This document shows positions 7,069 through 8,263 of a DNA stretch of 64,000 nucleotides, piece by piece. Origin of the DNA: a bacterium (GTDB taxonomy: Bacteria > Patescibacteriota > Minisyncoccia > Phycocordibacterales > UBA5272). Below the pieces are notes generated by a model, which was given only the letters and a program-made list of their open reading frames with translations, did no database searches and was not told where the DNA came from. Position 1 is the stretch's first letter; each line of letters begins with the position of its first letter. The DNA is taken from NCBI GenBank assembly GCA_027482685.1, contig JAIXVU010000008.1, positions 4,652 through 68,651 of the forward strand, written 5' to 3'. The translations under genes and the position numbers were made by a program.

Positions 7069-7635
7069 TTAATTAGTTATTCCTAGCATATCTTGTAATT
7101 TTTTGCGTTCGTCTTCGTGTTTACTTGCTGTCTCTAAAATAGTGAATAAATCTCTATTGCGACCTCGTGGGTTGTTGCGTAGTTCTAAGAATTCATCAAA
7201 CGATATAAAGCTTGTCTGTATCTTTTCCCCTGGATCAAGCATTGGTTCTCCGATTTTACTACAATTTCTTGCAATATAGAAATAATTGTCCCATTCTATC
7301 TTAGTACTATGGAATGGGTCTGAGATGAACCAAAGAGACCAATCTTCAGAAACGAGACCTGTCTCTTCGCGGAGTTCACGCTTAGCATTTTCTAGCGTTG
7401 TGATATTAGGTTTACAGACTCCTCCAGGTAATGTAGTAAACAATTGTCTTCCTGGTTGCTCTTCTTGATCTATTGCTATCTTGTTCTCGTATACTGCTAT
7501 TACTGTTACACTATCTCTTTTTTTAATAGCTTCAAAGAGCTGCTCAGAACCATCAAACATTTCCTGCTCCCAGTGATACACATCAAATAGTATACCGTCA
7601 AAAACTTTTTGCGCGTGGTCAGGAATCTTTTTCAT
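7069..7635 (-). CDS. NUDIX hydrolase, ADP-ribose pyrophosphatase-like (Nudix box largely intact)
   Basis: Nudix box [24 protein letters not shown] retains REx2EE; translationally coupled within atp operon (2-nt gap to atpD). Confidence 0.75.
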
Positions 7636-7639
7636 ACGA

Positions 7640-8263
7640 TTATATGCTTGGTGTTATCTGTGATGGCTGAGTTTCAGTAGATGTGGCAACAGTTGGTGTT
7701 TGTCCTTCAGCAAATCCAAATATCATATCATGAAGTTTCGCTCTCTCATCTGTATTATTCGCTGCTCGTTCAAGAATTGGTAAAAGCTCTTTGTTACGTA
7801 TTTCAGAGGTCTTACGGAAATCCAAGAACTCATCAAAGGAAATAAGCTTAGGTGATATCTTATCCCCAGGATCCTCACGAACCGCTCCACCTTGTGTTAC
7901 ATTACGTGCAATAAAAAAATGATTATCCCCTATTACCCATCCATATGGAGCTACGAACCATTTGGTGAATGCTTCTGCTTTGTACCCAGCCTCAAGCTCA
8001 AGCTTAAACTTCGCAGTTCTCTCTGGTGAGTCTAACCCTTCGCAGTGTCCACCTGGAAGAGCGAGAAAAGGTGCCTGTCCTGGTTGCTCCTCTTGTAGCA
8101 CGAGTATCTTATCTTCTACAGTTGCGATAATAGTCACACAGTCCGCACGAGAAGCCGCCTCAAAGATAACAGTAGATCCATCAAAAAGTGTCTGCTCCCA
8201 TTGCCATACGTTATATCGTACGCCTTCAAACATTAGTCGTGCATTGTCAGGGAGTTTTTTCAT
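7640..8263 (-). CDS. NUDIX-fold paralog with degenerate Nudix box (possible pseudo-enzyme)
   Basis: Clear paralog of the 7069-7635 gene, with N-terminal MKK(I/L)PD...F(D/E)G...WEQ..FDGS conserved; the box GGHCEGLDSPERTAKFKLELEAGY has lost the REx2EE residues. Confidence 0.65.
   Translation of the reverse strand: MKKLPDNARLMFEGVRYNVWQWEQTLFDGSTVIFEAASRADCVTIIATVEDKILVLQEEQPGQAPFLALPGGHCEGLDSPERTAKFKLELEAGYKAEAFTKWFVAPYGWVIGDNHFFIARNVTQGGAVREDPGDKISPKLISFDEFLDFRKTSEIRNKELLPILERAANNTDERAKLHDMIFGFAEGQTPTVATSTETQPSQITPSI

Follow-up and report, generated by a model that had tools for sequence, protein, structure and literature searches.

An intact and a degenerate Nudix paralogue in tandem between atpG and atpD in the ATP synthase operon of a member of the Patescibacteriota

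What do two Nudix genes do in the middle of an ATP synthase operon, and does their position mean that they serve the ATP synthase? The question is raised by a stretch of 64,000 nucleotides (nt) of contig JAIXVU010000008.1 (assembly GCA_027482685.1, positions 4,652 to 68,651; the whole stretch is called the window below) from a member of the Patescibacteriota, in which two extra open reading frames (ORFs) lie on the minus strand between atpG and atpD, the genes of the gamma and beta subunits. The closest homologues of its atpG carry the NCBI names Candidatus Paceibacterota, Nomurabacteria and Parcubacteria, which puts the window into the Parcubacteria group of the Candidate Phyla Radiation (CPR). 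We designate the upstream ORF nud2 and the downstream ORF nud1. The ORF listing confirmed that the genes are tandem paralogues separated by gaps of only 21 nt (atpG-nud2), 4 nt (nud2-nud1) and 2 nt (nud1-atpD), as a prediction made from the DNA letters had stated (the original prediction). The reading that we favour, and regard as probable if by no means certain, is that nud1 is active and nud2 is a conserved non-catalytic protein, probably its partner in an asymmetric dimer or else a binder, and that the pair is an optional hitch-hiker at a seam of the atp operon.

The two proteins share 45% identical residues over 184 amino acids (aa; E = 1e-55), which makes them paralogues. Both scored above the gathering cut-off (21.1 bits) of the Pfam family NUDIX (PF00293), at 44 bits for nud1 and 22.8 bits for nud2; no other Pfam domain was found in nud2, and no NCBIfam equivalog was reached, the best being NudE, whose 24 bits fall short of the cut-off of 169. 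By sequence, the solved proteins that come closest are the ADP-ribose pyrophosphatase (ADPRase) of T. thermophilus, ACT of Bacillus methanolicus and NudF/Bd3179 of Bdellovibrio; the first two and NudF were the matches of nud1 among PDB sequences, and the family profile found its nearest solved proteins with E values from 3.5e-20, for ACT, to 2e-19. AlphaFold2 models of the single chains, built from an alignment of 70 sequences, reached predicted local distance difference test (pLDDT) values of 96.2 for nud1 and 90.3 for nud2. In both models a three-stranded N-terminal sheet (strands 9–13, 17–25 and 31–39) precedes the Nudix core, which is followed by two C-terminal helices. Foldseek returned Bd3179 (PDB codes 5c7q and 5c7t) as the first match for both proteins (E = 1.1e-15 for nud1 with 5c7q and 1.8e-12 for nud2), further matches being ACT, Mt-ADPRase, NudE, YffH and the Klebsiella ADPRase, and gave a probability of 1.00 for many Nudix structures with either model. 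The alignments to 5c7q and ACT span the N-terminal beta domain, and the ADPRase-like N-terminal extension that had been proposed for both proteins was thus recovered in models and structural matches alike. Both belong to the group of Nudix proteins that comprises pyrophosphatases of ADP-ribose and of nucleoside diphosphate (NDP) sugars, N-terminal beta domain included.

The chemistry of this group is well described for Bd3179, the NDP-sugar pyrophosphatase (NDPSase) of Bdellovibrio, in which four glutamates, E16N, E19N and E20N in the Nudix box and E140 in loop L9, lie where they can bind Mg2+; its E140Q mutant served to trap ADP-ribose in the crystal (PMC4629899). A profile alignment to 5c7q and 5c7t equates E140 with E137 of the present family. 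Like Bd3179, nud1 and the wider family keep the three glutamates of the box and the glutamate of loop L9. The box of nud1 reads G72-VCKPN-I78-TTLENAK-R86-E87-L-R-E90-E91-T-G93-L; of the consensus GX5EX7REUXEEXGU it retains G, R, E, U, E, E, G and U, so that the metal-binding glutamates are intact, and Ile78 stands in place of the glutamate of the GX5E part. The original prediction had described this box correctly as one which keeps REx2EE and lacks the upstream glutamates, the latter being replaced by K75 and I78. From its residues, nud1 is most likely a working NDP-X pyrophosphatase, and our best guess for its substrate is ADP-ribose or another ADP- or NDP-sugar.

The box of nud2, G72-HCEGL-D78-SPERTAK-F86-K87-L-E-L90-E91-A-G93-Y, is of a different kind. 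E75 and D78 are kept, REL is changed to FKL and EE to LE, again as first read, and to these changes the analysis added a further one, the replacement of the loop-L9 glutamate by aspartate. Of the consensus residues, the Arg and Glu in REU and the first of the paired Glu are gone in all four nud2 orthologues; the three orthologues from other genomes have Leu, Tyr and Phe at position 86, Lys at 87, Leu, Leu and Asp at 90 and Asp at 134. The four lost positions are otherwise 96–100% conserved. Among 129 family proteins, R86 was present in 124, E87 in 125 and E90 in 125, the exceptions being essentially nud2 proteins, and position 137 was Glu in 124 and Asp only in the four nud2 proteins. Neither in this set nor, separately, among 148 representatives that HMMER returned from an exhaustive search through 1.84 billion sequences, clustered at 50% identity, did we find any protein other than nud2 with more than one catalytic position changed, and thus no independent degenerate paralogue of this kind. 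Because R86, E87, E90 and E137 are lost as a set only in nud2 proteins, nud2 is very probably no longer a Nudix hydrolase.

One could object that nud2 is still an enzyme, the mechanism or substrate of which has changed and which uses E81 and E89 together with E91 and D134. E81 and E89 were indeed gained and fixed in all four orthologues, at positions where the family has Leu or is variable, and the strong constraint on nud2 described below would suit a new activity. However, the Mg2+-binding E16N and E19N of the characterised hydrolases of this fold class are Lys and Leu or Asp in nud2, position 86 drifts between Phe, Leu and Tyr as expected for a site that is no longer important, and a precedent was not found. 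We consider a changed enzyme unlikely.

The original prediction went further and interpreted the two boxes as complementary; on this view a heterodimer, which alone would be functional if the degeneration were truly complementary, would couple the hydrolysis of ADP-ribose or nucleotide sugars to ATP synthase expression. In the window, nud1 has K75 and I78 where nud2 has E75 and D78 combined with FKL and LE, both genes are located within the atp operon, and proteins of this fold class form intertwined dimers with composite sites (PMC4629899). However, nud1 of the other three tandem lineages has a complete Nudix box with Glu or Asp at position 75 and Glu at 78, so that complementarity does not characterise the pair as such. 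K75 (positions 7411–7413) and I78 (7402–7404) are private to the protein of the window, each occurring in 1 of 150 sequences of the representative alignment; position 75 is Glu or Asp in 123 of the 129 family proteins, and the GX5E glutamate at 78 is found in 55/129 of the in-operon clade and in 130/150 of the wider family. Position 78 also drifts among the four nud2 orthologues (D, D, D, N) and varies in the single-copy orthologues. Furthermore, the elements which the partner contributes in Bd3179 are strand beta3' and loop L8', and each Nudix helix serves its own site (PMC4629899), so the boxes are not elements that act in trans. Given, in addition, that five of six close relatives have no such gene at the junction (see below), complementary degeneration did not hold up, and a pair functional only as a complementing heterodimer seems quite improbable.

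Loss of the catalytic residues has not been accompanied by loss of constraint. Orthologues of nud2 (P0122–P0124) with 79–84% identity occur in three other lineages, and in these four lineages the order is atpG-nud2-nud1-atpD wherever a contig holds both flanks. As synonymous sites were saturated (synonymous divergence, dS, above 1.3 or undefined), the usable measures were comparisons of nonsynonymous divergence (dN) and, where computable, an upper bound for dN/dS of about 0.05–0.09. Among the four tandem genomes, dN of nud2 was 0.12–0.155 (up to about 0.16), compared to 0.125–0.187 for atpG and 0.06–0.086 for atpD; dN of nud1 was 0.27–0.325 (up to about 0.33) in five of six pairs and 0.07 for the pair L086-L089. 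Hence, nud2 evolves about half as fast as nud1 and at about the pace of atpG, which points to strong purifying selection on nud2. Together with the four lost catalytic positions, this supports the part of the original prediction that had proposed a catalytic copy next to a pseudo-enzyme.

The same data bear on the idea that nud2 is a decaying duplicate without function, a pseudogene in the making. Its catalytic residues are gone and its clade is small (four clusters at 90% identity, one representative at 50%), as this idea would have it. Against it stand an ORF that is intact in four lineages with saturated synonymous sites, a dN equal to that of atpG and half that of nud1, a confidently predicted structure and the conservation of 60% of the family-conserved positions: nud2 keeps 39 of the 65 positions conserved in at least 80% of the family, among them Y17, W22, F34, E35, EEQP (58–61), PGG (70–72), E91 and G93. 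We regard this explanation as hardly tenable.

If nud2 does not hydrolyse, its retained residues may indicate what it does instead. Bd3179 forms a homodimer by domain swapping. Of the ADP-ribose surface that is buried, 46% is due to the opposite monomer, whose strand beta3 contributes the Arg and Glu that hold the nucleoside together with an aromatic residue of loop L1 (PMC4629899). In the profile alignment, R37' and E38' of Bd3179 correspond to F34 and E35, and Y19 falls on position 16, the nearby aromatic residue at 17 being the likely equivalent; W22 and E35 are practically invariant in the family. By analogy to this structure, we infer a domain-swapped dimer with composite sites for nud1 and nud2. 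A nud1:nud2 heterodimer is plausible, since the residues by which one monomer of such dimers recognises the nucleoside in the site of the other are still there in nud2. In such an asymmetric dimer, nud2 would give beta3' and L8' to the single working site of nud1, and its own site would hold a ligand without turnover. Alternatively, and within the reading that we favour, nud2 may be a stand-alone binder of nucleotide sugars.

A more far-reaching version of the latter idea is that nud2, on its own as homodimer or monomer, senses or binds ADP-ribose or a related nucleotide without hydrolysing it, in the manner of the Nudix domains of NrtR regulators or of NUDT9-H of TRPM2, and signals through its disordered tail to another target, possibly the ATP synthase. 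The combination expected for a non-catalytic, ligand-binding Nudix protein is present in nud2: the catalytic residues are degenerate, and the fold and the ligand-contact residues for the nucleoside are kept under strong purifying selection. In addition, the C-terminal tail, which showed pLDDT values of 60–71 and no secondary structure in the AlphaFold2 model, was found in all four nud2 orthologues and neither in nud1 nor in the single-copy orthologues, and non-enzymatic Nudix proteins are an established class (PMC5389931). On the other hand, nud1 always follows immediately downstream of nud2 in the four lineages, the tail is variable in sequence and length, nothing ties nud2 to F1, and nud2 is not fused to an effector module, its 207 aa comprising beyond the fold only the disordered tail of about 25 residues. 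A lone sensor is thus possible, if rather doubtful.

The family tree gives a hint on how the pair arose. The nud2 proteins form a monophyletic clade (100% support) with a long stem and short tips, and its sister, with 79% bootstrap, is P0096, the single in-operon copy on L177, a genome that is itself sister to one without a Nudix gene at the junction. P0096 shares with nud2 a loop deletion of two to three residues and several motifs, and its catalytic set is fully intact. The simplest reading of the sequences would be an old duplication at the junction, followed by differential retention of copy A, copy B, both or none. Under this reading, catalysis was lost in copy B only where copy A was also kept. 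Recombination between related genomes, with the conserved genes atpG and atpD as flanks, could equally have produced the pattern.

We then come to the second part of the question, the position within the operon. The orthologues were found in a metagenome scan with an alignment restricted to the N-terminal part; the matches listed for the full-length alignment, in a scan of genome contigs, were distant homologues with at most 47% identity. A Nudix gene is located at the atpG-atpD junction in about 20 fetched contigs, and all fetched orthologues which are at least 48% identical to nud1 and have their flanks lie between atpG and atpD. Among the homologues with less than about 50% identity, which stem from Saccharibacteria, Magasanikbacteria, Levyibacteriota and other groups, none adjoins atpG or atpD. 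Likewise, none of the distant homologues listed in the scan of genome contigs (at most 47% identity) lies between the two genes, and the only one listed there with atp genes nearby, L001, has them on the other strand. No atp gene was within reach of the distant homologues in 38 of 40 long loci, the remaining two having atp genes a few kb off, and no conserved neighbour was found in these 40 loci, the commonest neighbour family occurring in four.

Sampling by atpG gave the complementary view. Five of six close relatives (atpG 77–81% identical) have no Nudix gene at the junction, where absence was scored, and a spacer of 20–85 nt alone separates atpG from atpD. In neighbour-joining trees of concatenated AtpA, AtpG, AtpD and AtpC, which comprise few taxa and have deep nodes with 40–77% support, the outgroup L001 was too distant to place the root, and we used only the well-supported shallow clades. 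Among these, the gene-free L172 and L175 group with the carriers L084 and L094 (97–100% bootstrap), and the gene-free L176 groups with the carrier L177 (99%). Because gene-free loci nest among carriers, the Nudix gene at the junction has, to judge from these clades, been lost or exchanged repeatedly. It is not consistently present with the atp genes across related genomes and, on this pattern, cannot be a component that the ATP synthase requires. The original prediction had named the search for the same insertion in related genomes as a check and relatives lacking it, with no other conserved linkage, as evidence to the contrary; the outcome is divided between the contigs that share the insertion and the close relatives that mostly do not.

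In three gene-free loci, the spacer of 81–85 nt directly past the atpG stop codon (L172, 4850–4930; L173, 4850–4933; L175, 4850–4934) forms a long hairpin followed by UUUU, with free energies of −17 to −19 kcal/mol and z scores of −5.0, −5.0 and −2.9, respectively, compared to shuffled sequences. The spacers of L172 and L173 are alike in sequence, and that of L175 is unlike them yet folds. This hairpin could be an attenuator, a terminator or an element for mRNA stability, and its presence in gene-free loci points to a natural seam between the gamma and beta genes. The window, with its short gaps, leaves no room for it. In other loci atpD is preceded by a leader of repeated (A/T)AAC(C/T)A-like units (L176, 4850–4934; L086, 7168–7215; L092, 5568–5624; L094, 5568–5620; L174, 5422–5471), for example CAGTAAC five times in L176 and AACCACTAACTATTAACTAAC in L086. 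Such leaders occur with and without a Nudix gene, and none is present in the window.

Nudix genes are not the only inserts in the operons of relatives. In L094, an ORF of about 115 aa (4644–5000, MTIFFQKFESVGILIASIIAYCLF...), hydrophobic and membrane-like, is inserted between atpG and the Nudix gene, and the junction has hence accepted more than one type of insert. Inserts between atpB and atpE were found in L084 (796–2343, two genes on the opposite strand encoding 158 and 355 aa without Pfam match), L173 (755–1072) and L176 (275–589; both ORFs of about 105 aa), and L084 has in addition an ORF of 71 aa between atpD and atpC (7941–8156).

Within the window, a consensus scan found no terminator-like site between atpG and atpD; the promoter-like and terminator-like sites that it returned were not above their frequency in shuffled sequence, and this includes two promoter-like matches within nud2. 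Because of the tight spacing and the lack of a terminator-like site, the Nudix pair is likely co-transcribed with the atp operon. Of the proposed coupling to ATP synthase expression, this much stands: probable co-transcription, and a junction shared by about 20 contigs. The functional tie is weak, in view of the close relatives without the gene, its patchy distribution among sister genomes and distant homologues unlinked to atp genes. The position in the operon is best read as giving no evidence that the Nudix proteins are a mechanistic part of the ATP synthase.

Taken together, the explanation that we favour runs as follows. A family of Nudix proteins resembling ADP-ribose/NDP-sugar pyrophosphatases, distributed across the CPR, is lodged at the gamma|beta seam in one group of Paceibacteria. 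Two copies would once have been present there, of which some lineages kept the long-loop copy alone, others the short-loop copy alone (L177, box intact), others neither, and the window and three other lineages both. In the latter, the downstream nud1 has kept the metal-binding and catalytic set and would perform the hydrolysis; the upstream nud2, having lost R15N, E16N, E19N and, by change to Asp, the loop-L9 Glu, would show no turnover but retains the fold, the N-terminal domain and the residues for nucleoside recognition. The location in the atp operon would be a facultative hitch-hiking at a permissive seam, resulting in constitutive co-expression.

Several points weigh against this explanation. 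The only derived residue which the nud1 proteins share across the tandem lineages is N7H, no sign of adaptation to a partner, and there is consequently no independent sequence signal for the heterodimer. The acidic residues gained at positions 81 and 89, given the kept E91 and D134, make an altered chemistry of nud2 possible. With respect to the substrate class, a Pro at G22N+15 marks ADPRases and D-x-K on helix alpha3 marks NDPSases (PMC4629899). The Pro of nud1 (Pro107) is found at G22N+14, in a column with Pro in 65 of 129 proteins and thus about 50% conserved, and around G22N+65 the family reads R-N-(K/R)-D on the C-terminal helices, D-x-K not being seen. Retention at one junction over about 20 contigs, with Nudix identities down to 48%, outlasts a pure chance linkage, and some benefit from co-expression with the ATP synthase is possible. 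Finally, the trees are of the neighbour-joining type, with few taxa and weakly supported deep nodes.

In this context, one can speculate on a functional tie to the ATP synthase, for example the removal of inhibitory ADP-ribose, although the phyletic pattern argues against it. In its most specific form, nud1 and nud2 would form an obligate asymmetric dimer with one hydrolytic and one sensor site, which keeps ADP-ribose or ADP-sugars from the nucleotide sites of F1 or reports them to these sites. Were this true, selection for such a dimer would account for the persistence of the gene at the gamma|beta junction, and the pair would be a bacterial parallel to the relief of methanol dehydrogenase from ADP-ribose inhibition by ACT, the first stand-alone enzyme/pseudoenzyme pair of ADPRase type and the first Nudix accessory of the ATP synthase. 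We consider it very unlikely.

The coordinates of the operon and of the features discussed are summarised in Table 1, together with the loci compared.

Table 1. Features of the window and classes of compared loci (positions refer to the window)
Feature	Position	Strand	Remark
F-type ATP synthase operon atpB-E-F-H-A-G-nud2-nud1-D-C	5180..12885	-	ORFs; Pfam families on the identical Logan contig L081
atpD, beta subunit, 461 aa	5681..7066	-	start 2 nt past the nud1 stop codon
nud1, 188 aa	7069..7635	-	Nudix protein, catalytic set intact
nud1 E137, loop-L9 Glu	7225..7227	-	equivalent of Bd-NDPSase E140
nud1 Nudix box, residues 72–94	7354..7422	-	R86, E87, E90, E91 and G93 present; K75 and I78 unusual
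nud1 N-terminal beta domain, residues 1–40	7516..7635	-	F17, W22, F34, E35; swaps between monomers in homologous dimers
nud2, 207 aa	7640..8263	-	Nudix-fold protein, degenerate catalytic set
nud2-specific C-terminal tail, residues 183–207	7643..7717	-	rich in Thr, Ser, Pro and Gln, predicted disordered
nud2 D134 replacing the loop-L9 Glu	7862..7864	-	equals family E137 and Bd E140
nud2 degenerate Nudix box, residues 72–94, GHCEGLDSPERTAKFKLELEAGY	7982..8050	-	R86, E87 and E90 lost
nud2 N-terminal beta domain, residues 1–40	8144..8263	-	Y17, W22, F34 and E35 kept
atpG, gamma subunit, 283 aa	8285..9136	-	PF00231; 21 nt before nud2
Tandem loci			L081–L083 (window) and L086–L091
Single-copy loci			L084, L085, L092–L097, L174, L177
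Gene-free junctions			L172, L173, L175, L176, contig of P0202

Some observations concern the remainder of the operon and its surroundings. The public gene call of atpG has 261 aa; homologues of 282 aa back the ORF of 283 aa with the long start. The delta subunit encoded by atpH (10686–11090) is short, 115–134 aa, and in several relatives its OSCP matches are weak. The longest ORF of atpH shares 38 nt with atpF; the start chosen by gene callers lies further in and gives 117 aa. Synteny is kept around the operon between positions 44–14345 of the window and L086, L089, L174, L175 and L177, the conserved order being a DsbA-like thioredoxin, a membrane protein similar to IspA/septation protein A (PF04279), the atp operon, BacA/UppP on the opposite strand, an SMC-like ATPase and RNase R. 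A PAP2 phosphatase replaces or joins BacA in some relatives. Just downstream of the SMC gene, L086 (12407–12597) and L177 (11967–12561) have a reverse-transcriptase gene (PF00078, RVT_1), possibly of a group II intron or retron, which occupies the slot of RNase R in the window (44–1984).

The pair is a natural example of a duplicated dimeric enzyme of which one copy keeps the chemistry and the other has lost four catalytic residues, yet is the more constrained, and for which related lineages have kept one copy, the other or none. If the asymmetric heterodimer is real, it would serve as an uncomplicated bacterial system in which to study pseudoenzyme partners among ADP-ribose/NDP-sugar pyrophosphatases and would point to the handling of ADP-ribose or nucleotide sugars in the reduced genomes of Paceibacteria. 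For ATP synthase biology the case is mostly a caution: that a gene lies within the gamma|beta junction is no reason to infer functional coupling. In this group, the junction is a permissive seam that holds a hairpin, one Nudix gene, two of them or other small ORFs.

Extra ORFs in atp operons, such as atpI, are familiar. 'Gene X' of Rhodopseudomonas blastica, reportedly described by Tybulewicz, Falk and Walker in 1984, is likewise an unrelated ORF between the gamma and beta genes; it concerns another protein in another phylum. Unlike 'gene X', the insert described here is an identifiable Nudix gene, occurs in two copies, and varies in presence among close relatives. The searchable literature yielded neither a Nudix gene in an atp operon nor relevant work on Nudix proteins in the CPR, and no described tandem pair of an active and an inactive ADPRase-type protein, an absence there being no proof that none has been described.

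With respect to fold, both proteins resemble Bd3179, NudF, NudE, YffH/NudK, Mt-ADPRase and Ndx4 of T. thermophilus, which share the two-domain organisation of an N-terminal three-stranded sheet and an alpha-beta-alpha Nudix core. The glutamate of strand beta3 is invariant as in Bd3179 (Bd E38', here E35). Unlike Bd3179, the family has Phe34 in place of the beta3 arginine, an N-terminal signature of its own and RN(K/R)D instead of D-x-K, and the identity to the chains of Bd3179 and ACT is 17–23%, and less to the other matches. ACT, among the closest solved relatives by sequence, is the Nudix ADPRase 'activator' of methanol dehydrogenase; by taking away ADP-ribose, which is inhibitory, it illustrates the service of an ADPRase to a neighbouring enzyme that binds nucleotides (PMC12926040). 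Unlike in the case of ACT and methanol dehydrogenase, an effect of ADP-ribose on the present F1 would be an analogy and serves as a lead only.

From the ADPRase/NDP-sugar enzymes, nud2 differs in addition by the absence of the entire catalytic set. Dimeric enzymes of the ADPRase/NDPSase type and non-catalytic Nudix homologues are both already well known, the latter including the NrtR regulators, the NUDT9-H domain of TRPM2, DBC1 and CFIm25. One paper documents non-catalytic Nudix proteins as a class and names DBC1, transcriptional regulation and calcium-channel gating (PMC5389931). Like NrtR, NUDT9-H, DBC1 and CFIm25, nud2 combines a kept Nudix fold with a degenerate box. These four, however, are domains fused to an effector, such as a winged helix-turn-helix or an ion channel, or act in eukaryotic complexes, whereas nud2 is a stand-alone bacterial protein encoded 4 nt upstream of its active paralogue. 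It also differs from those non-catalytic domains in that its closest relative, P0096 of L177, still has an intact box.

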